A stretch of DNA of 64,000 nucleotides from Amoebophrya sp. A120 (GCA_905178155.1 CAJINV010000002.1:565493-629492); one strand, 5' to 3'. Shown: positions 1-50,500, numbered from the stretch's first letter. The notes: a model not told the origin generated them from the sequence alone. Numbers and translations: made by a program.

Positions 1-948
1 CGGGTCGATGTCGTTCTCCAGCAGATAGGCATTGGCGCCCTCCTCCAGCGCCGTCCCGGCGTCGTGCTCCTCGCAGTGACTCGAGACTGTTACTAGGTGG
101 GCCCCCGGCGTTTGGCGAAAAATATCTTTCTCCTCCAGCACTGCCATGCCGGTGGCCTTGTGCGTCAAAACCATGTCCGGCCCTCGATCAGAGCTCGTGT
201 TGATTACTAGAAGCGGAGGTAGTTGCTTTTGTTGTGCTGTCGCTACGACACTTTTCAGATCACGCATGACAATGTCTGCGTTTTTCTGGGACGGAATTCT
301 TGTATCGGTGAGAAGTTGCTCGAGGCCGGTCCCGCCTGCTGCTGCTTCTGCGATTTTTGTTACCTTTTTGCTCGGCAGGAGGATCGTCGACGTCGGCACA
401 ACTACTTCATGAAGATTCTCGCCCGCGTACCACTTCACTGCCATGTGCGTCACCATCCACTTCGCCGCTTGGTCGACGAGAGTCTGCCGCCCGCCGCCAA
501 GTATGTCCATCGACAATTTCGTTCCGCATGGGGTCGCGTCGCTCATGTGGGTCAGCAGAACACTTCGCGTTCCCGGGTCGGCAATTATCTGTGCCGCGAG
601 GGTTTCCCCGGCTTCTTTTGCAAGAAGTGATGCTTTATCAAAATGAGCATCTTCTCGCGGACCTCCAGTCAGAAACGGGTCTAGCGTTCTCGCCAATGTT
701 GCGCTGACCCCAGCCAGGTCCACTTGCTCTGGAGACGGTGAACGCTCGCGAGGACCTCCTGAATCGGTGGCAGGAGGAGGAGAACTGGGCTGCCCGTCAC
801 CGTCGTCGCCATCTACTACTAGTACGTCTTCCCCAGCGTGAAGCCCCCCGTCGTCCATCCACAATGCCCCGGATTCAATCGCGGCCAAGGCAGTGTCGGA
901 AACATTTGCGGCCGGTACCTCCGGCTCTGCGGCCCCAACGTCGGCACG
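1..948 (-). CDS. Partial gene of unknown function (ORF3 of the element); ~316-codon open exon running off the window, with probable upstream exons to ~1770
   Basis: Manual translation is stop-free from 948 to 1 (RADVGAAEPEVP...AAKWMVTHMAVKWYAGENLHEV...NAYLLENDIDP). Preceded by a TA-ended intron (949-1112). Upstream ORFs 1090-1395 and 1389-1619 are in different frames. Confidence 0.6.
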
Positions 949-2679
949 TATGCGTTACAAAAAATAGCCAGCAGAGATGCCTCCTCGAACAATCCTTTTC
1001 GTATTTTCATGACCAACATTTTGCACCTCCTTTGCGCTCGATCTGAAAGCACAATTCGCGGAGGGGAACATGCGCCCTTAAGGTGTTTGTCATGCGAATT
1101 TTGAAAAGGATAGGACAGGAGCAGTCATCACTGCCGGAACATTTGACACAAACATAAATTCCTCGCGAGGTTGGCAATCGTGGTTGCCGCTGGTTTCATT
1201 TGCGATGCTGCTGCTGCCCCAAAGATCGTCAACGGCTGCGAGCCCATCGAACGCGAAGTAGTCCCCTTGTGCCTCAGCAAGGTAGGCGTCCACTCCACGT
1301 AAAGCCATTCGGGGCGGAACGGGCGAACTGGTTACCTCTGAGAGCGATGTGTGGCGGCACGGCCTCAGATTGTCGTCGTCCGAAATTTTCAACACCAGGC
1401 CGGAGCAGCCGACTGCTTACACTGGTCACGCGGGGCCAGGAGGTCTAGTAGTGCCGACCGTTTTATTCGTTCTTGCAGGATGTGCGTTCGAAGAGAAACT
1501 TGGGACACAGTTATCTCTTCCATCACTTCACCGTCGGCGCCATCGTTGGGTGTTGGTTTGCCTTCGTCAACGAAATCGAGCGTGCGACAGCGCACTGGCG
1601 GTAAGTTCAAATTTTCCACAGAAGCGAAAAAAAACTGCTCTATGGATTTCGTCGTCTATGAAGAGTTGCTGCGCCGTGCCACGTTGTGGCCTCACTAGAC
1701 CGGAAAAGAACGAAGGACCGACCTCGTAGAGTCTCCTTCTCGTCGTTCTTGAGATGTTTGTCGTTATGCCTGTAAAGTCAGTTTATTGAGAAACGGCACA
1801 AGAAAGTGGAAGTGCCTACTTTCGTTTTTGAGGCTACTTTTGCACTTTGCTTGATCGAACGCTACTCATACTCAGCTCAATGGATCCTGAAAATTTTTGG
1901 TCGGTGTGACGACTTGCGCAATAATATGTCTTGCAGCTTGTTTTGCGTGTTACGCTCAAGGCAGCATGATCGAAGCGAGCTACTACATCAGAGTGGCACA
2001 TCTCGACATAAGGCAATCTGGATCGACATCTTCACGACGAGACACGACAGAGAGGGGCAACAGCGTGCTCCTCCTGCGCTCCACACTTACACTCAGCTCG
2101 AGCAACGATTTGACGTGTTTGCAATGCGCTCAATGAATAAGAACTAAGATGAACGAATGTAGCGACATCGTTCACAGACAATCCGAGATAGGATGCGATG
2201 GGAGGTGGCAATGTAAGAAGGAAAAAGGACACTATGTACGACAGGAAGACAAAAAGCGGAGGCAATCAATGCGCAAGCAAAGCCCACTACTGGCAGAAAC
2301 GAAAGGATGTCCGTAAAGGCCGAAAAACGAAATAAGCACAAAACAGCATAGGAGTCGGGAGCAGAGGCGGGTGTGAAGCAGGGACGCAATAAAGCCGCCG
2401 GGAAACAAAGAGCTGGAAAGCGAAATAAAGCGGCGGACTACAACATAGTGACTAAGAAAAGGCGGCGCGACTCATGGAGATAAACTCTACGACAGACGGA
2501 CGGAAAACCGAAAAAATGGAAGCTACTAGTCCGGACATCAAGGGGAGGAAGGAGTCGCACTTTCTTGAGATACAAGCTGCAAGCCGAGCACTTCGCCACA
2601 CCAAAAAGTGTAAATTTCGGAATTTTTGAAATTCGTTTGAAATGCTTAATTATTGCATTTAGCGCCGCGTGCTTCTGCG

Positions 2680-5600
2680 TTAATTGTTCTTGTGCATGAC
2701 AAACGCGATGTACCGGGCTGGGTGGCGACCACCTGCTTCGTTGCGGTCCTTGCGGTCCACCTTAGCCTCACCGTCGTCGTTCTTCTGCCGCTTGTTGCCA
2801 TCGAGCTCCTCCTCGATCTCATCAATGGACTTGTACGCGAAGCCCTTCTTTTTCCGCAACCGCTCCTCCGCCAAGTGGTACCACATGACCCAGTTGTGCT
2901 CCGAGAGGCAGACATCCTTGAACAACTGCGCCTGCTCATCGTACGACAACTTTTCGAACTCGCGCATGGTGAAACGGGACGTCTCGTACGACATGTGGTT
3001 GACCCACCACAACTTCTCATCCGGCATCAGCGACTCATATGCGAGCGCGGTGATATCCAAAGCGGAGTACAACGTGGCGTCCTTCAAATCGAACTGCACC
3101 TCACCGGTCTCGTCGCATATGAAAAAGCAAAACTTGCTCCGTCATTATTGCATTTGCGTTTCTACTACAGCTCGTTTTTAAATTGTCATGCGTTTTTAAA
3201 TTTTTAGAACCACAAATGCAATGATGACGAAGCACGTTTTGCAAGGGTATCGCAGGCGTTCAAGTCAATCGCGGAGGTGTAGAAGTCGCAGTCGGTCAAG
3301 AGCATGGCGTGGAAGTGGCAGTCTTTCCACATCGGCGGGTACCGGAAAGTAGACGCCGGAATCAGGACCTTCTCGATCGTGTGCTTTTGGTCGGCCTCCG
3401 TCGGTAACAGCGTGTTCAACTCTTTGGCCACCTCGGTGTCGGATTTCGGCATGGGGGCAACTGCGGCCAAATCGGTGTAGGAAACGACGCCGTTGTCGTA
3501 GTGGCAGATCTGGACCGGGCAGTTGCTGATGCAGTGATGCACCACGACCGGAATACCCTGATCCAGCCGCTGCTTGACCTTCATCATGTTGTTAACCCGG
3601 GCGGACAGGGCGCGGCGCATGGCCCAACTGGTCGGTCCGAAGTTCAAGCAAGCCAGCAGCTCCGCACCCCGCATACCGACGTTATCGGCCATCTTCGCCG
3701 GTCCTTGGTTGCGGAACTTAGTGGGCAAGGACATGCACAGCTCCGTATCGTAGATTTCCGGCGCGCGGAGCATGGAGGTCATCTTCTTCACGCCGGCTCG
3801 CAAAGTACCAGTACAGTGGTTCTCCACGCGCACAGCAAGGTCCAGGCGGGCGGACTGCACGTCGTCCTCGGTGATCATGTTCAGCGACTCTTCGGCGTCC
3901 GCGGGGAACACGGCGTACTCGATAGCGGAGGCCTTGAACGTGGGCACTCGCCCGTCGCGATCACCCTTCAAAAAGCGCTCTCTCTGCATGGAGAAAAACG
4001 AACCCGCGCAGTTGATCCGCTTGTCGTTCTGCACGTGACGTTCCGCATGCGGCTGTTCTTGTTGCATCTCGCACAACGGAGTGTTGGCTAACTTCTGAGC
4101 CACGTATTGTTTCACCGAGTCGATTTTGCCTTGGTTGAGGAGGATGGCCTGCGACCGCGAGAATTTGCCGGGTTCGTAGCTCAGCTGATCGAACGCACAA
4201 TCCAGCATCCCCTCCCACAAACCGAGCTCAGTCGGAAACTCCTCTTTTTGGGAGACGCAGAGGGTTTCGAAGAACCCATACTGCGGATCAGCCAACTCAA
4301 ACAAGTAGCGGCTAATGGTTTGAAACAGCTGCTTCTGACCCTCCAAAATTCCGACTTTGCCGTGCCGGCCAGAAGCCTGCTGGATGCAGTGCAGCGCGCG
4401 CTTCGCGATGGCGTACTTAGCCTGGGCCTGCTTGATTTGGATGAGCTCGCAGGTCGGAGCAGGACTGCCCGTTGTGAAGGGGTGCAACAACACGTCCGTC
4501 ATGCGCTCAGCAACGTCCTGCGGCAGCGGTTCACCAGGCCCGATTTTGACCAAGTTCATCAACATCTTGCACTTGGAGTGGCCGAATTCGGACATCTCGA
4601 TCACGCAGGTGGTCATGCCCGGCTTCAGCTCGGTCTGTATCAAGCGCTGCAACTCCCGCGGATCCGAGCCGAAATACGCGTCATCCTCCTCGTCGGACTC
4701 GAGGCCGTCATCGTCAGCGTCGGGATGGAGAGCGGCCTGCGCATTGGCGTTCACGACCAAGGGGCGCACTTCGTACAAGTACATCAAGAGCCGCCACTTC
4801 CACTGATCCAAGAGCAAGGCCGTGTACAAGTCGCCGCACCAGCGCGTGTCGACGCCGCCTTGGATGGGCAGACCTTTTTTTGATGAAGAAATCAATAGAT
4901 TTTAGGTGGTGGAAGGAGAAAAATTTGCATTTTTTGATGCCGCGACTCAGCAGAGGTTTCTAAGTGAAAACTTAGACCTCTCAATTTACCTCTATCTGAA
5001 CGCCAATTACTCAGTGTGATTAAGAGGTTTACTCCGAGGTTCATTGGGAGGTCTCTAGAGAGGTCCCCAAATGCCTTCCGCCGATGGTATGATGAAAAAC
5101 AAAGCATACCATCGTGAATCAATCAAAAATAACAACTTATACGTTCTTTCAGCATGTCGATCATGGTCAAGTTGTGGGTTGAGCGCCCGGCTTTGGCCTC
5201 CTGCATGCAGTACTCCATGAACGCCTTCTGCAAAAACGGGTTGTCCGGCATGTTTTCCAACGCGTTCAGCATCTTCTCCAGCAAGCGGACACGGGCGTCA
5301 AAAAGGTCACCCATGTTGGTGCGCTTCCCAAAGGGGCCTCTCATCAGCGCTTTAATAGCGCGCCGGATCTTCTCGATCCCCGTGTACTTGGACTTCGCCG
5401 TGTTACTGTCCCTGTGACAGGGGCCTGGGGTGAACGTGATGCACACCAGCTCGCACAACTGCTGCCAAGCAGCCATTTCCCACGATGCCTGATCGGTCAT
5501 GAGGTTGACAACAAGGTTGTCTCCCTCTTCCCAATCGGCGCCATCGTCGTCCTGCGCGACCCACTCAGCGAAACCTTCCGCACCCATGATGGCACACAAG

Positions 5601-6648
5601 TACTCGAGCGCTTTCTCGGCGGATTGGCGCGAGGCCTTCTTGTCTTTCGAGTCCTGCGTGGACATGGTCATCTTCTTGTCAGCCGCATTGATCTGCACGG
5701 GCCACGTGGTCATCTCGAGCGCTTCGCCACCCAAGAAAAGCGGATAATCTTCTTGATTGAAGGTCTGTTTTAAATTTTAGCTTTTGATATTTAGACTTCG
5801 ATAAATACATGACTTCATTAAAATTTGTCATGCTGTGATCAAAACAAAAGTAAAAAGTACGTTCACGAGGGTGGTGCTCCGTTTCCGGCGCTTAGTGTCA
5901 TCATGGGCCAAGGTGAAGAACGCATTGCGCCGGCGCTGCTCGGACGCCATGCCGGTAATGCGGAGCCAGCGGTCATCAAAAAGTCCACGCGAGCGAGACA
6001 TCATAGCCATGCAGCGACGCAGGATCCAGGCCTGTGCTCAGAAGTTGATGATCATATGAGATGACATACATCGCCACGCTCGCATCACAAATGAAATTCT
6101 AAAACTAACAACAGAGCTTCGTGGTACCAGTTGATGGCTTTCGGGCGCCAGGTTGACACGCTTCTTGCCGCTATCGACGACGGCGTCGATCTTGGCGGCC
6201 ACCGCGGTGATCAACGTGTCGACCTCGTTGCCCACCCAGACGTCCGGAAACTTGACCATGCCCATACCATTCTGGTCGAAAATCTTGCGCCAGTGCACGC
6301 GGTTCTCATTCTCGACGATGTCCCACGCAATGAAGGTTACCTGCGTTTTTAAAAGTATGAATATGAAAATTGGTGTGCTTCGAGCGCATGACGACAAGAA
6401 TAAAACGACTATCTGCATGACAAAAAAATCAATACCGCCTTCTGGACAGTGCGCGTCGCCGTGATGCGACCACAGTCGGAGATGCCGAGCTCGGCCAACG
6501 CATTGCGACACACTGCCACGCTGCGCTGGAAGTTCGTCGGCTGAGTGGTGTGCTGACGGAGATTGACACATCCTTCATTATCGGAGCGAGTAAGTGGATT
6601 GATAAAACGTTTTTGCGTGCCAGCGTTCATCGCTAGCTGCCACGACAT
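2680..6648 (-). CDS. hAT-like DDE transposase, ~1090 aa, 6 exons (6648-6436, 6340-6128, 6031-5861, 5764-5143, 4873-3250, 3112-2680)
   Basis: Four GT-AG introns plus one introner join the ORFs in frame. Motifs appear in hAT order: FFTLAHDDT (D1), NLMTDQAS (D2), TPGPCH (CxxH position), VDTRW (RW), AVRVENH (candidate E). A further terminal intron at ~2577-2713 is possible. Confidence 0.8.
3118..3249. mobile_element. Introner inside the transposase gene
   Basis: ~38-bp imperfect inverted repeat (GCAAAACTTGCTCCGTCATTATTGCATTTG... / ...CAAATGCAATGATGACGAAGCACGTTTTGC) and TSD TCGCA. Removing element plus 5 nt gives NACD|ETGEVQFDLK in frame. Confidence 0.9.
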
Positions 6649-6665
6649 TTTCACTCTTCCTACGG
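6648..6665 (-). promoter_or_regulatory. Leader motif CCGTAGGAAGAGTGAAAA directly upstream of the transposase ATG
   Basis: Near-identical to the motif at 9217-9235 upstream of ORF2. Confidence 0.6.
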
Positions 6666-7398
6666 GTTTTGACTGTGAGGGAACTGTTGCGTTTTTTTGT
6701 AGACAAACAAGTTAATTGACGAAAAGACTACACTACTTCCAACACACAAACAGGCACGCGTGGTTGCAGCGAACAAAATACCGATGGACTTCGCAGTACT
6801 AGGCGCAGGCACTTACTCTTAGTTTTTTCCTTTAAATTCAACATGAATCTTCTTCCGAGGAATTACACCAGACGGCTTCGAAGATTATTTCGTGTTTTTG
6901 CAGCTATGGCTTGATGTAACAAGCATTATCCCTCCTTCACTAACCGTAATTCCGCTTTATAGTCAACCGAATACTTGCTGCTTCAAATTAGATGCCTATT
7001 TTCAGCGCGGCTACGCTCAAATCATCATCAGACATTGCTCGTGAATTAGTATAGTACTAAAAAGCAATAGTCTGTAAAGAAAGTAGGAGAAGAAACGCTC
7101 CTAAAACCGAATGACTCTGCTGTGCAAATTTTTCGCAAACCCCTGTATTTCAATAGCTGGGATAAGGCTATCATCGATGTTGCTGCGATGCGGCTGTATC
7201 CTTTCATAAATTTTTTCAGAAGCGAAAGTATACTAGTGCTTTGTCCTCAATTATAGTTGTTCTTGCAGCTACAAATAATAGAACGATAAGGAGGAAGCAG
7301 TAGAAACAGCTTAAAACTCAATAAACTGGACCTAATACAACACTACAACTCAAATAGAGTAGTCGATTTTGATTTTCCAATTCGCGACGAAGCGCTAC

Positions 7399-9178
7399 TT
7401 ACAACTGCTTCGCCTTCTTCGCGGCTTTTCCTTTCGCCGGGGCGGCTTCGCGCTTCATCGGCTTCTTGTCCTCCACCTCCTCCTCCTTCTCCTCCTTCTT
7501 AGCGGCCTTCTTCTTAGGGGCGGCTTTCATAGACTTCGTAGTGGCCTCCACACCATCGTCCATGAGGGGCTGCGGGTCGGCCTTCTGGTCCTTCTTAGCA
7601 CCCTTCTTGCCGGTGCCCTTCTTTTTCTTATCATCCTTTTCTTCCTTCTTCGCGTCGGAGTCCTTCTTTTTGTCATCGGACTCATCGGGGGAGTTGTCCT
7701 TCATCTCCGCGTCACCGTCGGTCTTGGGGGACAAGTTCGCCACCACAGACATGACGTCCTGCATGTCGTTCTCGGTCAAGTTCGCGTAGTCCACCTTGCC
7801 AGCAGTCGCCTTCATCTTGGCGATGATTTCCGCGGTCATGTACCCCTCCGGGACAGCGGATCCGGGGACCGGAGTGGCCAGGTTGGGGACGGCCTTGGCG
7901 GCGCCCTTAGAAGCGAAGAAGTCGTCCTGATATTTATGTTTTATATTGAGGCTCGAACAAGAAGACACGAACGAAAATACGACGCCAAATAAGTTGACTT
8001 ATCATTATAAAAAACCACGTAACTCAACTTGACTTGTAAAAATTTAAAAATCAGGCACCGATTCGCTCAGCTTCAAGGAGCCGACGTTCTTCTTCACGGT
8101 GCCCTTCTCGGCCTTGGGGACAAAACCGACCTTCTCCTCCTTCGCACCGATGCGGGTCTTGGCGTGGGGGTTGTTGGTGAAGGCGTTCAGCTGGTGCTTC
8201 TGTATATGATTTTAGTTGGTTACTTCTATGCTCTTCTACTACGCCACAAGTATGGAACATGTACATGAAACACGCATGACAATTTTAAAATTCAAACTTG
8301 TTCTACCTGGAAGTCGAACTTCAGCTCCGGCACGGCATCCTTGTCCTCATCTTCGGTCGCGGAAGCGGAGGCAGACTCCATGTCAGAACCGTCGTACGCG
8401 ATGCGCTTCGGTAACGACTTGTGAAACAACAACTTCTTCAGCACGTCCAAGTTACCCAAGGTGTCCAGCAGTTTGTCACCCATCGCGCGCGCATCCAGGT
8501 CGGGCGAAGCCGCATCCACGGTGGGGGCGAACGCGGTGATCTTCAGCTTCCACTCAGCGGCAGACATCTTTTCGGACAGCTCTTCGGCCGCAGCCTTCAG
8601 GGTGGGAGCGTTCTTCTTTTCCGGTGCCTGTTATTGATTTTAGGTGGTCGCTCAAAAAGAAGTCACGTTTGCATCTCAGCGTGACAAACTAGCATAATGA
8701 TGTGGTTCAAAACTTCTATAAAAAAGCAAACGCGACTATACCGCTTTCTTCACTCCCTTCCAGACCTGGTTCCAGAACTCGATCACGGCGGCCTGGTCCG
8801 GAAACTTGTGCCGGATGCTACGGGTGGCGGTGTTGCTGACGCAACCCAACAACTGCGCGGTGTTGTTGCAGCCAAGGTCGACGTAAACTGATTAGTTGTT
8901 TCAAGTGGAATTCGAAAATTTAGAAATCAGCATGAACATGTCATTTTCAATGGTGATATGCATGAAAAAAAAATTATCTTACAGACGGTCTCGCGGGGAA
9001 ACGGGCAGTCGGGCATGGCGCTGATGTAAGTCCACCCAGCCTCTTGGGCCTGCACCACCAACAAGATGGCCGACAGGCTGCTCACACCGTACTCCAGCTG
9101 GCTTGCGGAGAGACGCATCCCAGCAGCCAGACAATCCTGCAACTTTTGCAGGGCCACACTCTTGGCATTTTTGGACAT
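7399..9178 (-). CDS. Transposon accessory protein (ORF2), 443 aa, with a K/A/E-rich low-complexity basic C-terminal tail; exons 9178-8983, 8887-8742, 8627-8307, 8199-8059, 7926-7399
   Basis: Four GT-AG introns (95, 114, 107, 132 bp) join all exons in frame. Exons are GC3-rich. The tail includes AAPKKKAAKKEEK...AKGKAAKKAKQL. Confidence 0.85.
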
Positions 9179-9216
9179 TGCGAAGAACGTCGTTGTTGTT
9201 GTTTTTATCGCTCGTT

Positions 9217-9235
9217 TTTTCACTCTTCCCTACGG
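9217..9235 (-). promoter_or_regulatory. Leader motif CCGTAGGGAAGAGTGAAAA ~40 nt upstream of the ORF2 ATG
   Basis: Differs from the 6648-6665 motif by a single extra G. Confidence 0.6.
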
Positions 9236-10083
9236 TTGGAAATTAGAAAGCAGAATTGGCATGATCATGAAGATGGCATCATCAAATCCGTTATATGATA
9301 CGCAAAAAAAAACCTTTTTCTTATAAGCGGGTTCGCGATTGACATGAAGATGGACGCGTGGTAAGTCAGCACAAGACTAACGACACACAAAAGGGGGGGG
9401 ATCTTGAATGCGTGTTGTAATGTGGGGCAGTACAGGTCTTATTAGGTGTGAATCCTAAAGAGCTTAGTACTTTGGCCAGAATTGAACGTCATGCACTACC
9501 ATCCTGCTGTGGTGCAATTGAACAAACAAAAAAAACACAGACCCAGCCTATTCAACTCATGGCGCCCGTCGTTCTCAACTCGGTATTGCGCCGCTATTCT
9601 CTTCTTTTTCATCTCATTTGCATACATAAAAAAAGCTTTTTCTCGGTGGCCAGTGCTTCTGTATTCTGATGCTTCTGGTTTCGACTTAGGGTTTAGGCCT
9701 TCTGGATGACCACTCTTCACATCTATCTTTCAACCAAACAACAGGACACTCCACAGTCAGAGTAACAGCCTGCTACGTGACGGGGCACCAGGAGCGCGAA
9801 GTCAACCGGCACCTGGACAAGCTGCAAAAAACCCGCTTTTAGAAGGCTTATTCCGCCCTCTAATTTCACCTTAATCCATGACCAAACTAGTTACCTTATC
9901 TAGCTAGCTCAAATTGGAACGTTCATTTTGACTTGCATACTCTTCTCCAACTGCTACCACCACGGGAGACGGCACCTGTACGCGCGCACGCGACGCGCGA
10001 AACAACACCTAAACAGCACCTGATACTGCAATGTTTTTAATTTGAAATGGGGATTTTTGAATCGCGTTGACAATAATCACTCA

Positions 10084-10095
10084 GACGCTGCCATA
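10084..10095 (-). repeat. Right terminal inverted repeat of the large transposon (TATGGCAGCGTC on minus strand)
   Basis: 12/12 identical to 62161-62172, with weaker similarity continuing for ~15 bp (AGTGATTATTGTCA vs ACTGAAATCGTCA). Confidence 0.8.
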
Positions 10096-10112
10096 CATTT
10101 TTACATTTGATA

Positions 10113-13100
10113 TTGCACCTGATCGTACAACGTTTTCTCTTTTTGCTTCAAAACTTGGATTATCACCTGCAGGTATGTCGGAGTTTGGAAAGAACTTGTG
10201 ATGCGGGCTCGACAGTCATGAGGACGCCTCCAATCGCAGCGAAGCACGACAAGTTTTTGAGTCGCTAGGCGTTGCCCATTCTGCATGGCAAACTGCGTTT
10301 CTGCATGACAGTAACCACTCGGGGCGCTTGGATAACGTACATGACAGACTTGAGACTCATGCTGGCCGAGCATGACAAACCTGGCCTTCTGCCCGACCCA
10401 GACATATTTGCAATTGATATGGAGAATTTTCTGGTAGGGTTCGAGCCGCAAAGCAACGTATTGTTCCGTAATTTTGTCGTACTCTTGGTTCGCGGCTTTT
10501 GTCATAGAAGTTGAGGATGTAGTACAACCACCGCCGGGTTGATGCGACTGCATTATGTTGTTCGTGGCACCAACATCAGAAAGTGATGTTTTGGACCATG
10601 TTGAAGATGAAGTCGGAATCATTTGTGCTGCTGAAACACCACGACTACCAGCAACACCTGCAGATGACCTGTCCGAGCTGACGTTCCCAAAGGAAGACTC
10701 GTGTGTAGTGGTCGTGTTGCTGGAATTTGTGTTGGTATCCTGTGCAAAAGTATCGCAATCTTCGTAGTGATTGCAGGTATGCATCAGCATTACAAACTCC
10801 TTTCTTATGGTAAATCCGCATTACAAACTCCATTTCTCATCCTGGTTGAATTCGTACTAGTACGATGCTTTTGTTTTGCAATCCTTAGATGGTGGAATTT
10901 AGCAATGTGTTGAAAACTGCCCCTGCGGAGGTAGGCGGAGGGGGCTCGTCTAGCACTTCATCTTTGTTCTCCATCTCCGGGTGGTCGTGGTCGAAAATAG
11001 ATTCGTTTTTGCCCATAGTTGCAGAAGTTCCTGGATGCTGATTCCCCTGCAGCTTGATGTAGTTTTCTTCTTCTTCTTCTTCTTCTTCTTCTCTCACCGA
11101 CAGCACATTCATCTGTTTCAAGATCGGATCCACATCGTCCAGATCCTCCTCCTCGTTCACCGTGCCAATCGACGACATGAGCACAGATGGGTTCACCGCG
11201 GTTCTTTTGTGCTTCTTATTACTAGATGTTTGTTCCCCCGGAGCAGCTGCACCTCCGGGGTTGACTGAAATAGTTGACCCTGTGGAAGTTGTTGACAACA
11301 CGGAGGAATTAATGATCTTGTTTCTCGACGTAGACACGGCATTCAATCTCCCGTGTAGTTGCTGCTGTTGCTGCCCCCCGGAGGTTCCACGTGGGGCTGG
11401 GGAGTAAGTCGTGCGTTGTGGTTTATTTTTCAATTTTAAATTTTCATTTGTTTTCCCAGGAACGACACCTCCGCCACTCCCGCTGTTCAAATTCCGGGTG
11501 TTCACGTCTTGGTCATAGTAAAGCGAGTTACTGTTCGTGTGCTGCTGATGGCCATGTTGTTGCAGTCCTGATGAAGTAGTTCTATTCAGCCCGGATGATG
11601 ATGATCCCGATCGTCCGGCATGAAGATTTTTACTGTGCGGGGACACCAGAATGGAGCTCGGCGACGGAAAATTTTTCTCCTTCCAAACTAAGGTCCGCTC
11701 GAGACTGAGGTTCAGGAGGTGGAGCGCTCGGAGTTGAAACTCTGCTTCTTTCACTTCTAATTCCTCTTCGTCAACGTTCTGCAGCAAAACGTGCATCTTC
11801 GGCGCCTGGTCTGGGGGAATCGTGGGGGACTTGGCAGGAACACCAAGCTGGTTATTTTCCGGTGGCGGTGACAGAGCGTACCTGAGTTTATGCTTTTCCT
11901 TTCACTTCGTAGTTCATTCTGCGTTCCTTGCATTACAAACTAACCAAGCTTCTCGCAAAGTATACAAAAAGCCATCTCGTCAACCAAACTCATGATCAAG
12001 CAGAAGCAAGCCCTTCCATACCATATGTTCCACATCTCCTTCGACCCCTCCTTATCCGCCACTCCACCCACCGGTATGACCACTGTGCCCAGGATCTTTT
12101 GCTCACGCGTCTTATTTATGCATTGCAAAAGTATCACACTCGTATAAATGCATTACAAATTTCCTCAGCATGAGAAATTAAATTTGTAATGCGGATTTAC
12201 CTTGAGAAAAAAATTTGTAATGCATGATTGCAATACGAGTACGACTACGATACTTTTGCTCGCGCGTCTTATTTTCAAAAACCGTCAACTCAACCACCTG
12301 TTGATCAGACTTCGTGCATTCCTCGATGTCGCTGAGGTAATTCGACGGTGATGCTGCACACGAACTGCCCGTAGTACCGATATGAATTGCAAAAGCATCG
12401 TACTAGTAGTATAAATTGCATTACAAATTAGCTCAGCGTGAAAAATCAATCGGGTGCTCGCTTCTTCAGGCGAGCGAGTAACTGTTTAGCGTACTTTCTA
12501 TGTTCCTGCTTGTAAATAGCTGGTGAATAGTGTTTCAACTTATCACCACCGGAGCTTGATGAAACAAAACCCTTTTTAGCTGTGAGCCAGTCAAGCTCGG
12601 GGAGTTGCCTGGGAGAATGTCAGCCGGAGCCAGCAATCAGCCCTGGCTTCAGATGGGCGCAATACTACCTCCTCATCCGTACTGCACCTATCAACCTCCG
12701 CACAACCGCAAGGTCCTAAGCAAGCCGCCTCTGCTTGCCCTTCCTTGCGTCAGAACAGGCGCCAAAGAACTGGCAGGTCCTAAGCAAGACGCCTCTTCTT
12801 GCCCTTCCTGCCGACCCTACCTGAGCCTGAGCTCTGGCAGTGGTACGTAAACGCCACCAAGAGACACAGGAAAACACGGAGTTATGCCCTGCATCTCCCA
12901 GTTGCCCCCCTTTACCCTAGCCCTAACCCTTGAACCCTACTGCAGCGCCGCATTACTCGGCGCCCGACTACTTCGCAGCACTCCTGGATTGGTTGTAGGT
13001 CCATTTTTGCTTCATATTTGCGCCTTTTGATGTCCTGCGTCGCTCGTTAGTGACTCTTGACCCGAAAGTAGGAGGTGCGTCGGGGTCGGCATCTCCGAAA

Positions 13101-19200: not shown

Positions 19201-22200
19201 CTCCCGGTCGGTTAACTGTTGGGAAGAGACGTCCAGTATCAACTGCAAATATGTCTGGGCCTGGAAGATTGCGAGACATTTGTCATGCATGTTTTGCATG
19301 ATCCATGGCTCCTGTAATGCATGGCCTAGCATCTTCACAGATTTTTTTTTTAGAGGGCTTCCTGATCATGCCTACTCCGCATGACAAATGCCCTTCCCCC
19401 GTAGCACAAACTGGACCCCTTTATTTGCTGGTCATGCAATAGCAATACAGATCTTTTTACAATCCACAGTTAGCATCACAAGTTCGCTTCCTTCCAGACA
19501 TCCAGGGGTATTTGCAATGCATATCCAGCTTCCGCCGCAACTCTTCGATTCCGTTCTGCAGCGCAGATTCCGCTTTGTTGGATTCTTCTAACTGCAATTC
19601 CAAGACCCGGTTTTCCTGCGCTTTCTCGTCCGCGATAGACTGCAGGCTGTCCCTCTCCTTGTCTAGCTCTTTGAGAGCGGATTGAAGTGATTGGATCGTG
19701 ATCTGCTTTTCCTCTAAAATCTCGTCCTTCTTCTCCTTTGTGGATAACATTTCCGACCGCGATTGCCGTTCGAAATCCAACACCCTCTGCGTCTCCTGTA
19801 GCTGCTGCACGAGCTGCTCCCGGGTGTGTTCCAAAGCCGTCATGAGAGACGTAAGCTGCGACTTTTCCGCCTCTAGGTTTACACATTTTTCCTTTAATTC
19901 ACTGTTCTTCGTGCTCAGCTCCTCATTTCCCTTCTCCAAAAACGTGTAGTCGGATTTCTTCGCTTCTGTGACCTTTTTATCCTGTGCAAAAGTATCGTAC
20001 TCGTAGTTGTAATCGCGATTCTGCAAAACAAATTTCGTTTTCAAGCTAAATCAGCATGACAAGTTCCATTTGCCATGCTGAGCTAATTTGTATTGCAATA
20101 CTACGAGTACGATACTTTTGCAATGCATACTTTTCCTTCTCTTTCAGCTCCTGCCGCAGTCGGTCCATTTCCTTCACGAAAACAATCCTCTCCTGCTATC
20201 AAAAGGAAAAATCCCCCCTCCCCATATCGAAAAGGAAATTTGTGATGCTGATTTGTGACCACAAAACAGCTTTGTCTTGCGTACAAGGCAAACGGCACCC
20301 ATGTGGCGTATTGTGCAGCGAGTCTGTCATGCGTTTTCGCATATGTTAGACGTGTTTCGCATGCTCAGTTGCTAGCCGGCTGCGTACCCAAATGGGCTTA
20401 GAATTTGCCGCCACGCTCTTGCTGCAATTCTGTACGCAAATCCAGCATCACAAATTTCCTTTTCGTTATGGAGAGAGGGTTTTTCCTTTTGATACCTGCT
20501 CAAACGCGTTCAACTTCGTCTCGGTCTGGTCCATCGTGAAGGACTGCAGTGACTTCGAAGACTTCAGTTCCTGCAGCTCCTTCTCGATCGTATCGCACTT
20601 CTCTTCCACGAGCTTCTTTTCCTTCTGTAACTCCGTCACCAACACCTCCAGCTTTTCGCTCGATTTTTTCTCGTTGGTGACGATAATCTCGGACTTTTCC
20701 TTCGTGAGAATCAAGTCCTGGTTTTGCTCCGCCAGGGACAGTATGGCCTGCAAAGGTATCGTACTCGTATAAATGCATCACAAATTTTCTTAGCATGAGA
20801 AATAAAATTTGTAATGCGAATTTATTTACCTTTTAAGAAAAAGATTTGTAATGCATGATTGCAATACGAGTGCGATACTTTTGCACAGGATAGACAGAAC
20901 TTCCTGTTGAATGGACGTCATCTCCTGGTTGAACTGCGCGACCTTGTCTAAGAGTTGCTGCTTTTCTAGCTTCAGTTCCTGCTGTAAAGATTCGTTGCGG
21001 GATAGAAGTTATGAATTGCAAAAGTATCGCACTCGTATCTTAAATGCATGACAAATTCTCTCAGCATGAGAAATAAAATTTGTATTGCGGATTTACCTTG
21101 AGAACAAAATTTGTAATGCATGATTGCAATACGAGTACGATACTTTTGCAAGTCATAAAAGTTTCTCGTTTTCGATCTTCAAAGAGGCGTTTTCCAGGTC
21201 CTGTTCCTTCCTAGATTTTATCAACTGCAAATACGTTGAAGAAACTTGTGATGCAAGTCTGCCTATGATTGGCGCACTGCAATACGCAGGCAAGCATGAC
21301 AAGTTCTGGAGCTGCTCCTATATGTTGCGCATTTCGCATGGCAAAGTGCGCCCTTGCGTGACAGGCAAGGGGATCTTTTCCTGCTCATGCATCACAGAGT
21401 TAAAGAGGCATGCCAGCCGAGCATGACAGTCTTGCATTCTTCCAGACCCAGACATATTTGCACTGCCTAGATTTCGAATGCTCAGAAGTGAGCCGGACGA
21501 TGTCGGATTCTTTACCTTTTATTGTTTTATGTTTCACAAGTATGGATGGTTGTCTTCGTCACGCAGACACCAACAGAGGTATGAGAGGGTGCTTGTCATC
21601 TTCATGCACCGGTGAAGCTCGCATAAAATCAATGAAAAAGCAAAACAAAGAATATCAAAAATCCTACTCATTTCGGTCCGCATGGCTTTTTCCAATTTCT
21701 CCTCAAGATCCGCCTTTTCTCTTTTCGACTCTTTCAGCTTTTCCACCCACGTGCTGCACTCGGTCTGCAATATCCAGGAAAAAAAGTGTGTAACTGTAAC
21801 TTTCCTGGAGGAACAGCATCACAAATTTGCTCTGCATGACAGAGAAAACCTCTCATGCGTGGCTTGTAAGGGAAAACACAAGCGAAAAGAGGACTTCATG
21901 ATGGTTGTCTGACATGACAGGCGTAACTCTGTTGCATGTTCTGCATGACAGAGTTAATAATACACCTACACACTTTTTCTCTTGCATATGCAAGCTCGTC
22001 CGTTCGGTCTCGAGGAGGGCGATGCGCTCCTGCGCGTCGTTGAGCAGGCGCTTGGCAGAAGCGTGGGAGGCCTGGTGTAGTTGTATTTGGTAAAATTAGC
22101 ATGAGAAAAAACGTTATTGAATGTAGATTTTTGCATGACAAGTTCATTTTCATCACTATCGCATGGAGTGCCTATTCCGCATTAGAAATGCCCTTCCCGC

Positions 22201-25200
22201 GTAGCAAAAATCGCATCCCCTTTGCTGCTCACGCAATACAGATTTTTTTGGAATCCGAATGCAGCATCACAAGTTGCATTCTTCCAGACCCAGACATTTT
22301 TACATTTGATATTGCACCTGATCGTACAACGTTTTCTCTTTTTGCTTCAAAACTTGGAGTATCACCTGCAGGTATGTCGGAGTTTGGAAAGAACTTGTGA
22401 TGCGGGCTCGACAGTCATGAGGACGCCTCCAATCGCAGCGAAGCACGACAAGTTTTTGAGTCGCTAGGCGTTGCCCATTCTGCATGGCAAACTGCGTTTC
22501 TGCATGACAGTAACCACTCGGGGCGCTTGGATAACGTACATGACAGACTTGAGACTCATGCTGGCCGAGCATGACAAACCTGGCCTTCTGCCCGACCCAG
22601 ACATATTTGCAATTGATATGGAGAATTTTCTGGTAGGGTTCGAGCCGCAAAGCAACGTATTGTTCCGTAATTTTGTCGTACTCTTGGTTCGCGGCTTTTG
22701 TCATAGAAGTTGAGGATGTAGTACAACCACCGCCGGGTATAGATTCGTTTTTGCCCATAGTTGCAGAAGTTCCTGGATGCTGATTCCCCTGCAGCTTGAT
22801 GTAGTTTTCTTCTTCTTCTTCTTCTTCTTCTTCTCTCACCGACAGCACATTCATCTGTTTCAAGATCGGATCCACATCGTCCAGATCCTCCTCCTCGTTC
22901 ACCGTGCCAATCGACGACATGAGCACAGATGGGTTCACCGCGGTTCTTTTGTGCTTCTTATTACTAGATGTTTGTTCCCCCGGAGCAGCTGCACCTCCGG
23001 GGTTGACTGAAATAGTTGACCCTGTGGAAGTTGTTGACAACACGGAGGAATTAATGATCTTGTTTCTCGACGTAGACACGGCATTCAATCTCCCGTGTAG
23101 TTGCTGCTGTTGCTGCCCCCCGGAGGTTCCACGTGGGGCTGGGGAGTAAGTCGTGCGTTGTGGTTTATTTTTCAATTTTAAATTTTCATTTGTTTTCCCA
23201 GGAACGACACCTCCGCCACTCCCGCTGTTCAAATTCCGCCACCTCCCGCTGTTCATTTTTGCATGACAAGTTCATTTTCATCACTATCGCATGGAGTAGT
23301 AAGTACTTTCAGCTCCATTTCCTCCGACTTCAGCGTTATCACACAGAAAAAAGTTTTATTGTTTGCAGTCGCGCATGACAAGCTTGCCAATCATGCATTT
23401 GCATGCTATGATTGCAACATAAATTTGTCACGCCGAAGACACAACAACTTTTTGCCCATCTGATAAGCGCAACCGCTTCCTCATCCCTTTTTCTCCTCGC
23501 CTCTAGCTCTGCCTGCTGCGACTTCTTCAGCTCTGATATCGCGGCCAACTGCTGCTCCAAATCGCCCCGTAAACTGCTCACCTCGTAATTCAACGAAGCA
23601 ATTTCGGCGTCCTTCGCTCCCAACTGGAGCAGTCTCTCTTCCAAATATTTTTGTAGCGACCCCTTTTCGTCCTTCAAATCGTGCAAAGATTGCATCAGCT
23701 CGGACACCTGGGACTGCATTTTCTCGCTCTGTTTCATGGTGGAAGACGCGGAAATCGAGGTCGAATGGTTCTGCAGTTTCCACTGCCGGAGCTGTTGCTC
23801 GGTTTCCTCTAATTATTGCAAGGAAAAATCCTCGCTCCCCATATTGCAAACGCATCCGTCTGAAAATTTGCGATGCAGATTTGTGGCCACAGATCGCGCC
23901 GGTCTTGCAGCAAGCCAAGCGCAGGCAGTCCGCCACGTTATGCAGGCGATTTGTAATGCCGTAGGGACTACATGGCAGCCGTGTACCATGCTAGGCGCCT
24001 ACACCAAAAGGGCCCTACCTAGGCTTGCGATCTGCGTGCAGTCCTCTACTGCAAGACAAATCGGATTTGTGTACGCAAATCCAGCATCAGAGATTTCCTT
24101 TTCGATATGGGGAGGGGGGATTTTTCCTTCTGATACTAATTCCGCCGTTTTTAAAGCCAGTTGCGTCCGGGTGTTCACCTTCTCCGCGTTGGACTGCGCT
24201 AAATCCGCGGTGATGCGCTCCACGAGTTGCTCCAGCTCCTGGACGCGGGCGTCCGTTATCGTATTTAAAAACGCCCTCACCGCGCAGTTGTAATGCAAAT
24301 CTGCATACTGAAAACGTTTCTTATGCGGAGCCCCATGGGAGCAAGCATTTTCTAGCCGTGTTTTGGAATTTGTCATTCTCCAATCAGCATGATATACTAA
24401 GTTCGTGATGCTGCTGAACAACCTCAAATAACAGCACACTACGAGTCCAAATTTGTCATGCCAAACAGGCAAAACTTGTGGATTTGTCTAGCCGATTCCC
24501 CATCTTGACTCTGGGGTGGGGACGTTTTTACATAGGATATCCGTGTTCAGAGACCCGTCGTCGAAGGGGGATTTCAGGGCGGCCTGATAGATCGTGGTGT
24601 TCTTGGGCAACTTCAACTTCTACAACAAAGATATTATCAATCACATCTTGTTCTCAATCATAATTCCAGTATCATTTTCGTGCACGACCTTGACATTACC
24701 AACACGATGGCTGCCTCTTCTAGGAGCAGAGAAACACGGTTTAAAAATACGTCCAGCCGCAGCTGCACGACAGTGAACTGGCTTTTCACGCTGGACAGCT
24801 CCTCCTGGGTGGTCTTCAGTTCGTCTTCTTTCTGCTTCTTTTGGTTTCGCATCTCCCCCATTTCCACTTTGAGCTCCGCCAGTTCGTTGTTGCAGGACAC
24901 AAATTGTGCGTGCTTTTCCATTATGCGCTGAAAATATGTTCGGGTCGGGAAAGAACCTGTGATGCTGTGACTTGCGTATGATTGAAGCCCTTGCAATGGC
25001 AGCCAAGCATGACAAGTTTTTGGGACCACGCCTGCTGATGCCTAGCACGCATTACAAATTGCCTTTTTGCATGACAAAGGAAGCTCCTCTTTTACTACAC
25101 CTGCAATACAGAAGATTTTCCAGGAATGCAAGACACGCATTACAAGTTCCACTTTATTTCAAGACCCAGACGTATTTGCATTTGATATCCATCACCGAGT

Positions 25201-47500: not shown

Positions 47501-50500
47501 GATACTTTTGCACTGGATACCGGTTCCGTCTTGTCTAGGAAGTTGTTCACGTACGTTTCGAACTTTATCTTATCATCGGCGTTATGAGAGTGCACAACTT
47601 CAACTCCCCCTCCCCCTCATTTGTATGGCATGAACAGCAACACAGGCAACAGCAGAAAAGGGACTTTCGCATGACGAATCTGCATGCGGATTGTAGTTGT
47701 ATTATTTGAGGTTCCAATTCCAAAATTTGTCATGCTAACAGTGCTTACGAGCAAGTGCAAGGTGTGACATTGGTATTTTGCATTACAAATGAGGGGGAGG
47801 GGGAGTTCTTGTGCAGTCTCATATGCGTCCAACGAGTTGTAGTATGTCTTGATTTCGTCGTATGAAATGTAAAAATGTCTGGGTCTGGAAGGATCCAAGG
47901 TTTGTCATGCACATTTTGCATGACTCCTGATGTCTGTGATGCATGCCCTAGCATCACAGATTTTGTGAGGGCTTCCTGCTGCCTATACCGCATGACAAAT
48001 GCTCTTTCCGTGTAGCAAAATTTGGACTCTCTTTGCTGCTCATGCAATACAGATTTTTTTAGAATCCAAATGCAGCATCACAAGTTCCAACTTTCCAGAC
48101 CCAGACATTTTTGCAATCCATACGTCGTTGGTGTCGATTGCGCCATGGATTCCAGTTTCCGGGACTTTCCCCAAGTGCAAGTCGTCCGTCAAATGGTCCT
48201 TGCCAAACACATATCCTGTGCAAAAGTATCGTACTCGTATTGCAGTCGTGCATTACAAATCATCTTGCCAAGGCAGATTCGAATTACAAATTTTATTTCT
48301 CACACTGAGGAAATAATTTGTAATGCATTTATACGAGTACGATACTTTTGCAATGCATAACACACGCAGCGTTGCCTCCTGAGAAAAAACGTACCCGCGG
48401 CGTCAAAACCTCAAGACTGATGAAACTCGGCAAACTAAACGAGTCAAGGAGCAGCCAAAGTTGCACCTTCCACTGACTTCGCGGGCCATGTTGCATGACA
48501 AAGTTTGGCTTGCGCCAGAATTTTCCCTCGTATTCATCTCGACGCGGATGGCAGCTTCACATCATAAAAAATCTACCTGTTCCTCTATGCGGATGAGTTC
48601 AACATGACAACTTCCAAAACGCCATGACAAAGTGCCTCTCCGACAGAGCCAATGCCAAAAGAAATATTTATATACTTTACTTCCCCTGCTCTTCGGGGCA
48701 ATCATTATCCCAGATTTGCATCACAAGTACGGCCGCGCGGGTACGTTTTAACACAGGATATGGGGGGCCCAGCAGGTTGGCGACAGGAGCAGGCGTAGCT
48801 GCGTCGACTACAGGATCCAACCCATCGCTATCTTTAGTTGCGCGCACGAAATAGTGGTCTTCCAGTACCTTATTCAGGTCGACGTGACCTTTGCCGGTGG
48901 CCTCGTGTTCTATCAACTGCAAAAATGTCTGAGACTGGAAGATTGCCAGGTTTGTCATGTATATTTTGAATGATCCATGATGTCTGTGATGCATGCCCTA
49001 GCATCACAGATTTCTAGAGGACTTTGTGATGCCTCTACCGCATGAGAAATGCCCTTTCCGCGTAGCACAAACTGGAGTCCTCTTGCTGATCATGTTGCAA
49101 TACAAACTTTTTTAGAAAAATCCAGAGACAGCATTACAAGTTTAGAATCTTCCAGACCCAGACACTTTTGCATTTGATATGTTCCGACCCTTGGTGATTC
49201 CAGCGCTCCCCGATGCTGCCCAAGTCGAATTTTTTGCCCTCAACTATGGCATTCTCAAAAGTTACATTCAGAGCTGTTACATGGATTTGTAATGCAAGAA
49301 CAGCAACAGCGAAAGTGGCAATATTGCAGCTTTCGCATCACAGACTTTCCACAGATCATCATGCTGCTTAGCCCTTCGAAAATTTGTCATACTAAGCACC
49401 TTGATCAAGTGGAGGCTGATGGCAATTTTGCATGACAAATCCGCGTAACAGTTGAAAATGTAACAGTTGAGAACGCCATATCGACGTCAGAGTTCTCCGC
49501 GTCTTCCAGATATTTGTTGACGAAGGCCTCCAGAATGTCCTGCTTGTCCGCCCCGGTGTGCTTACCACTCGGGTCCGGATTATGCATTGCAAATATTTCA
49601 TTTTCATCCGGGTCTGGAAGGATGCGAACTTGTCATGCTACGTCTGAACCGTGCAAAATAAAATCTGTGTTGCATGATCAACAGCAAACATTGTCCACTT
49701 TTGACCAAGTTCAGACTGAGTTTCTCATGGACAGGGGGCACGATACGGATCTCACAGAATTTTTCATGCTAGGTCCACCTGCATAATTCGTTCCAGACCT
49801 CATGCGTGGTCATCATGGAATAAAACCTGCATGACAACTGTCATCTGCATTCTTCCACACCCAGACATATTTGCAGTGGATACGGGTGCTGTCCCAGCCA
49901 CTCGTAGTGCTCTATCCTCTTCAAACACGCTAGCGCGTCAGAGTTATTTTTGTCTCTATATAAACTATGAGGTGATCGCTTTTTTGTGATACGGCTTTGT
50001 CGCCAAGCACGAAGATGACCACAGTTCACCTAAGAACTGTAGTCCAAGCTTGATGTCATGCGGATTTCGCACAGCTTCTTGATTTGTGAAGCACGACATG
50101 CACAAGCACAACTACAACCCCCATCTTCACATTGACTCTGGAGTGGAGACGTCTTTGAACAGGATACACTTCTGGATGTCGTCATATGGGATTCTCAAAT
50201 GTTGCATTCTCAACTGCTACATGATTTGTCATGCAAAATGAGCGTCAACATTTTGTTCCACACAGTCAAGCTGCTTCGCATGACAGATATAGAGAAAGGC
50301 TAAACAGCGACTACTTCTGTGCGGTATTCGTCATGCTACAGGTGCATCAGCCTCCCCTCTTTGACTTTTGCCATTCTTGCATTACAAATTCATGTAAAAG
50401 TTGAGAATGTAACAGTTGAGAACTCCAGCATACGTCATTGCTGTCGATGATCTTGTTGTTTTTCGGGCTCGATTCGTGCGTCCAGAAGTCGTCGTATTTT

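Follow-up and report, generated by a model that had tools for sequence, protein, structure and literature searches.

The sequence considered here (the window) is a 64,000-nucleotide stretch of the genome of Amoebophrya sp. A120 (GCA_905178155.1, CAJINV010000002.1:565493-629492), a marine parasitic dinoflagellate noted for the non-canonical introns of its genome. On its minus strand, at 2684-6648, lies a gene whose product is probably a deeply diverged transposase of the Asp-Asp-Glu (DDE) class and of hAT type, likely to move elements with terminal inverted repeats (TIRs) in trans by cut-and-paste. This assignment, to which we attach moderate confidence, draws on the order and spacing of sequence motifs in all seven proteins of the family and on the rank of Hermes as top structural match for a modelled core. 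What is new here is this hAT-like protein and, as a tentative proposal, its candidacy for the missing transposase of the A120 introners, short TAT...ATA elements with 5-bp target site duplications (TSDs), copies of which lie further along the window.

Gene structure and protein family

The gene is real: it is transcribed, intact and single-copy, and encodes a product of about 1,180 amino acids (aa). Its six exons in the window (Table 1) form a single open frame of 1,096 codons, much as in the original prediction of a six-exon protein of about 1090 aa, which stopped short of a seventh exon. Transcript contigs of runs X3 and X4 (single sample) exit the window at 2684 with 28 letters that are absent from it, and because this continuation matches the C-terminus of the database protein P0002, the seventh exon is placed beyond the window. 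Transcript-type contigs confirm the exon model at intron 3 (5765-5860) and at the 137-nt skip of 3113-3249 (intron 5); the start ATG and the first two introns were placed from GT-AG ends and homologue alignment, and no RNA reads across the exon 1 junction. That runs X3-X6 are RNA is itself a guess, for which the joints across introns argue, and the raw-read runs X8 and X9 yielded 1 and 0 reads, respectively. One 7,268-nt contig spans 2654-9921 at a flat depth of 41, and because its exons carry no variant letters the gene counts as single-copy in that run at an identity of at least 80%. Three database protein fragments are 99-100% identical to the window, two of them being unnamed proteins of Amoebophrya sp. 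A120. The GC content at third codon positions (GC3) is 0.77-0.80, against 0.41-0.66 for five other open reading frames (ORFs).

Searching 1.84 billion representatives with exon 5 (phmmer) returned seven matches, three from the locus itself and four from Amoebophrya AT5.2, with no second A120 locus among them. A profile search added two further AT5.2 proteins, giving six relatives in total; word-index protein searches for longer or shorter forms, and searches of metagenome and viral contigs, found no others, and none was found outside Amoebophrya. The A120 protein is 26-28% identical to these relatives, which share 30-64% identity among themselves, and six paralogues so diverged fit a mobile family.

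The motifs LAHDDT, MTDQAS, GPCH, DTRW and RVENH occur in the spliced frame in the order originally described (HDDT at 191, TDQAS at 295, GPCHR at 319, DTRW at 421 and RVENH at 761). Across the seven proteins 86 alignment positions are invariant, 17 of them acidic and none of them Cys; they include D192, D193, D296, H322, R323, R423, W424, E681, E685, H688, E690, R691, N695 and D696. The Glu of RVENH, earlier the candidate E and followed by an extension of about 300 aa, is not retained in that role: its column (E763) reads E, Q, S, R, Q, E, Q, and as E685 and E690 are invariant in 7/7, the tail past the likely catalytic E comes to about 490 aa. This tail is conserved in the family and probably binds DNA or oligomerises. 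Nor can GPCH serve as the mark of a lineage. Only its His is conserved (H322, 26 aa past the second D and invariant in all seven), the position at -3 holds G or A and in 0/7 Cys, and the Cys at -1 is unique to A120, the homologues reading AEAHR, GLPHR, AAAHR and AQMHR.

Table 1. Features of the window, with positions counted from its first letter
Feature	Position	Strand	Details
Exon 1	6436-6648	minus	ATG at 6648 inferred; GT donor at 6435; in frame; aligns to N-termini of AT5.2 homologues
Exon 2	6110-6340	minus	Donor alternatives 6112, 6109 and 6127, each frame-keeping
Exon 3	5861-6031	minus	D192/D193 (predicted first catalytic D); RNA-type contig 5861-6032
Exon 4	5143-5764	minus	D296 (predicted second catalytic D), H322-R323; 5764/5861 joint in RNA-type contig
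Exon 5	3250-4873	minus	R423-W424, helical insertion domain, E685/E690 (predicted catalytic E); exon 4/5 junction spanned by P0001
Intron 5	3113-3249	minus	132-bp degenerate TAC...ATA introner (3249-3118) plus one TGCGA copy, spliced out
Exon 6	2684-3112	minus	Part of C-terminal extension; RNA-type contigs X3 and X4; P0002 100% identical
Intron 6, part in window	1-2683	minus	Insert of ~13.7 kb, inverted-repeat ends, 5'-TTAAC at 2683; exon 7 beyond window
Gene C	7399-9190	minus	Five exons, Lys/Glu-rich, expressed (RNA-type contigs), no family
Candidate TAT-type ends	10056-10112	minus	Ends at 10095 and 10112, unpaired in window, weak
37 curated TAT...ATA elements	15243-63123		147-337 bp, perfect 5-bp TSDs

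Resemblance to hAT transposases

Seven canonical hATs served as controls, being those with ORFs longer than 250 aa among 18 loci from a scan of genome contigs; all seven match PF05699. Two motif scans of viral contigs for such controls gave 2 chance matches and then 0. The D-D-E triad of the A120 family follows hAT order, with D192 and D193 both candidates for the first position and E685 and E690 for the last, and the RW motif (R423-W424) is kept in 7/7. The distance from W to E685/E690 (261-272 aa in six of the seven proteins, 225-230 in P0007, which is gapped) falls inside the canonical range (233-291 aa in five canonical controls). Other spacings exceed those of the controls, D1-D2 being 79-106 aa against 65-75, H-W 95-102 against 52-89 and the tail after the E 470-520 against 38-111; the second D and the E lie about 390 aa apart. 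At loci L010, L015, L017 and L020, unbroken hAT transposase ORFs of 541-890 aa sit on 1.7-3.2-kb contigs of bacterial metagenome-assembled genomes, which are probably eukaryotic contamination.

Folding used the homologues P0004 and P0008 as stand-ins for the spliced A120 protein. The 575-aa core of P0008 (10 aligned rows) was modelled with a predicted local distance difference test (pLDDT) score of 57.5, and comparison with 48,161 chains by VIA-align placed Hermes (8edg_A) first, with Z 7.2, a root-mean-square deviation of 5.5 and 278 aligned positions, model 95-575 lying onto chain 215-607. The next matches were helical bundles (Z 5.8, 103-115 aligned), and the 50 matches listed include neither RAG nor Transib, P or IS256. 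A large alpha-helical insertion that separates the second D from the E (P0008 residues ~183-530), mostly at pLDDT 70-90, is included in the alignment to Hermes. The catalytic residues of Hermes are D180, D248 and E572, and the alignment stops where E685/E690 would meet E572. The match gains weight because the enzyme had been predicted beforehand and because its alignment is by far the longest.

Several results weigh against a hAT assignment. In the P0008 core pLDDT falls below 40 in the E helix and in the strands that carry D1 and D2, so that the model does not demonstrate convergence of the triad; a Z below 8 is, by the tool's own warning, common for unrelated models; and Foldseek, run repeatedly on this core, matched no transposase. 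The full-length model of P0004 (pLDDT 36.8) did not have Hermes among its 50 matches listed and gave no match in Foldseek. At the level of sequence, Pfam searches with the exons and six homologues found no match, whether to PF05699, DUF659, DUF4371 or otherwise, and PDB sequence searches found none. Profile comparison with the seven canonical hATs (hhalign, both profiles being shallow) scored 25 at best, against 13-28 in 30 block shuffles, and the Cys of CxxH is missing from six of the seven family members. A feature search of the ESM Atlas returned two hAT-dimerisation clusters at 0.77, which is a lead only. The earlier view of the protein as a hAT-like DDE transposase has moderate support, from the motif order and spacing in 7/7 and from the first rank of Hermes, the catalytic strands being poorly modelled.

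With Hermes and other canonical hATs (Ac, Buster and Tip) the A120 family shares the D-D-H-RW-E order, a W-E distance of about 260-270 aa and a helical insertion placed after the fifth strand and before the E helix. It differs from them in reading ExxHxER where they read SxxERxFS, in having mostly lost the CxxH Cys, in showing neither a BED finger nor a PF05699 match, and in its tail of ~490 aa and longer spacings. Motif and insertion-domain features are found, then, and profile similarity is absent, and we predict an enzyme that works like a hAT. In fast-evolving protists, DDE transposases can drift too far for Pfam and HMMER to detect.

If the enzyme resembles Hermes and Muta1, its metal-binding residues would be D192/D193, D296 and E685 or E690, set in an RNase H fold that the helical insertion splits; H322 would make contact with the end of the element, and W424 would position the flank to be cut; roles of the conserved H and W in transposases are described in PMC5225508. 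The flanking DNA would leave as a hairpin, and staggered insertion would duplicate a few target bases to give a short TSD. Where an inserted, hairpin-forming element is taken out of the RNA along with one TSD copy, the frame stays intact, as intron 5 shows.

TAT...ATA introners and a candidate enzyme for moving them

An unbiased scan for inverted ends with exact 5-bp flanking repeats found 61 matches, against 7, 3 and 10 in three shuffles, and 39 of the 61 start with TAT; the same scan with 8-bp repeats found 4, none starting with TAT. Two of the 39 were dropped (one overlapping, one with a TAG end), and all 74 ends of the 37 curated elements start with TAT and continue into a loose consensus and then an A run, the TSDs showing no sequence preference. 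Element plus one TSD is divisible by three in 19 of the 37, the other remainders being represented by 10 and 8. With their short direct repeats and ends of TAT, about seven variable bases and an A run, the window elements match the A120 introner end motif published by Farhat et al. 2021 (PMC7789003, section 11), who counted 29,850 repeated introns in A120, or 17% of the assembly. The ends and the 5-bp TSD of these introners were already known; the enzyme was not. At 22290-23238, inside introner sequence, lies a recent copy of 10091-10539 joined to 10997-11496 (99.6-100% identical), flanked by a sequence at 22130-22170 that recurs at ~23254-23298, and this resembles capture of a gene fragment by an introner.

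Farhat et al. found no transposase in A120 and took general transposase-mediated mobilisation as ruled out (PMC7789003). In supplement file 8 of Gozashti et al. 2025, 56 of 58 A120 families are assigned to superfamily 'Unknown', one to Ginger and one to Mutator (PMC12130899). The Ginger label belongs to fam38, listed with '5-bp TSD, TA/TA termini', a family that the text of the same paper describes as without Ginger homology and without Ginger termini or TSDs. Neither paper, in the parts used here, names a transposase like the A120 gene product (PMC7789003, PMC12130899), and the literature covered on Amoebophrya transposons and dinoflagellate introners holds no description of this protein family, most subscription papers and Repbase lying outside that coverage. 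Whatever its substrate, the presence in A120 of a gene that is transcribed and has its hAT-like motifs intact weakens the case made by Farhat et al. against such mobilisation.

The gene and the introners meet in intron 5, whose introner is flanked by a perfect 5-bp TSD (TGCGA) and forms a hairpin of -50 kcal/mol (z -5.15). Removing the element plus one TSD copy leaves the frame intact; an RNA-type contig shows the 137-nt skip, 5 letters being ambiguous, and the frame is restored in P0002. This degenerate copy is the one A120 introner element in the window for which splicing was observed, and as it lies within the gene it identifies the gene as an introner target, not necessarily as a source. 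Intron 5 was rejected as a GT-AG intron, and for introns 1-4 the T-rich/A-rich ends of the hairpins were rejected as belonging to the TAT family.

The original prediction linked the protein to TAT...ATA ends and 5-bp TSDs. The elements are real and far above the shuffled level; within the window no paired TAT...ATA ends were found around the gene, which, like its single copy, counts against the predicted transposase. The candidate end at 10095 (flank CATTT) agrees over 12 bases with one TAT family and breaks into a second end, at 10112 (flank TTGCA). It scores 31, against shuffle maxima of 26-34, and was rejected as proof of an element boundary, the score being reached by two of six shuffles and no partner lying in the window. 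It is possible, and we suggest it tentatively, that the gene product moves the TAT...ATA introners with a 5-bp stagger. A single host-expressed gene, invisible to sequence searches, could then be the hAT-derived master transposase of the A120 introner invasion, moving the elements behind tens of thousands of non-canonical introns, one of them in the gene itself. With both a protein and ends identified by name, the spread of introners can be assayed directly.

We lean slightly towards a different arrangement, in which the protein is a transposase and the TAT...ATA introners are moved by another enzyme, either Ginger- or integrase-like, or encoded by the CxxH-type ORF of the insert nested in intron 6 (described below), or by an unseen gene. 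AT5.2 has six homologues, yet 99.98% of its introns were reportedly predicted as canonical; the percentage stems from gene prediction, a procedure possibly biased towards GT-AG introns. Given this and that ORF, other candidates exist. Intron 5 shows a target role only, and the 10095 end is not above shuffles. The Ginger label of fam38 (PMC12130899) and the 5-bp TSDs of the Ginger2/TDD elements TDD-4 and TDD-5 (PMC2836005) point to an integrase-like enzyme. Against this, fam38 is described as having neither Ginger homology nor Ginger ends, which are TGTNR (PMC12130899, PMC2836005), whereas the window elements have TAT ends in 74/74, and Ginger enzymes have a compact integrase core with an H2C2 finger and no insertion domain, against some 390 aa from the second D to the E in the A120 protein. 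The nested element for its part ends in TTAAC, not TAT. Because Farhat et al. report no transposase in A120 (PMC7789003), a hidden one is needed, as the gene described here would be.

That the gene is a domesticated, host-retained descendant of a hAT, no longer moving elements or moving none of the TAT...ATA class, we regard as unlikely. It would account for the single copy at depth 41 without variant letters and without a second A120 locus among the seven matches, for the six introns and high GC3, for the lack of paired TIRs in the window, and for the gene having itself been struck by two elements. On the other hand every predicted catalytic residue is retained, AT5.2 has several diverged copies of the family, and the far boundary of the locus lies beyond the window.

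A separate DDE superfamily outside hAT seems similarly improbable, although there is no sequence-level link to hAT, no Pfam match to the hAT dimerisation domain, xxxH-R in place of CxxH, and longer D1-D2 and H-W spacings and a longer tail than in the control hATs. A conserved H past the second D is shared with MULE (Muta1), P element, Kolobok and IS256 of the CxxH clade, and in MULE also a conserved W. The ExxH of the family resembles the motif at the catalytic E of MULE and Kolobok. In Muta1, however, W401 and E419 are 18 aa apart, against about 265 in the A120 family, and none of MULE, P, Kolobok and IS256 is among the 50 structural matches listed. Transib makes 5-bp TSDs. It differs in its CAC ends and in C(2)C and H(3-4)H motifs (PMC12730594), of which the A120 family has no conserved equivalents, the elements ending in TAT. 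In its RW motif, in the spacing of W and E and in its best structural match, the family is closer to Hermes than to RAG/Transib, P and IS256, and Amoebophrya proteins evolve fast (PMC7789003). If the gene-element link holds, 5-bp TSDs would stand against the 8-bp TSDs of canonical hATs; since hAT5, hAT6 and hAT7, with TSDs of 5, 6 and 7 bp, sit within hAT (PMC12730594), this is no ground for a new superfamily. By their descriptions those three are recognisable hATs nesting near Blackjack or Ac, whereas the A120 family is not recognisable by sequence. The distinct lineage proposed at the outset finds support in depth of divergence (no Pfam or hAT profile match, relatives only in Amoebophrya), while the arguments from GPCH, the catalytic E and the TSD are weak. 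Lastly, it is very unlikely that the protein is no transposase at all, being instead specific to Amoebophrya and showing the motifs by chance: all sequence searches are negative and a D-D-E can be picked by eye among 17 invariant acidic residues, against which stand the D-D-H-RW-E order with hAT-like spacing and the first rank among 48,161 chains, with the longest alignment, of an enzyme predicted in advance.

The nested insert and neighbouring features

Intron 6 appears to be an element of about 13.7 kb with inverted-repeat ends that is apparently spliced out as an intron. Positions 1-2681 lie within a 13,716-nt DNA contig that joins back to 2612 on the opposite strand, and contig overlaps imply an exactly repeated end of 32 bp at 2652-2683. 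Two extra residues (NK) stand in the mRNA where the insert joins, as though a 6-bp duplication had persisted in both copies. The end 5'-TTAAC resembles the TTA... ends published for A25 more than it does TAT ends, and as a TAT-type end it was rejected (score 14). A transposase-like ORF of the insert (1-954 and 1093-1416, minus strand) has candidate residues D139 and D256 and a C-E-E-H motif (294-297) in a 318-aa frame; it has no Pfam, PDB or metagenome match and no profile similarity to the family described above or to the control hATs.

Gene C has a GC3 of 0.82, and a near-identical 20-bp upstream motif occurs at 6647-6666 and 9216-9235, which hints that gene C and the transposase gene form a two-gene unit. 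A related genomic copy of intron 4 (4919-5112) found elsewhere fuses intron sequence to sequence like that at 9877-9960, and the intron contains an internal palindrome. Further along, 50300-57900 is made up of tandemly repeated units of about 2.8 kb that encode a repetitive protein rich in Asp and His; near 52060 and 54929 begin two GC-rich inserts, each of about 1 kb and identical to the other.

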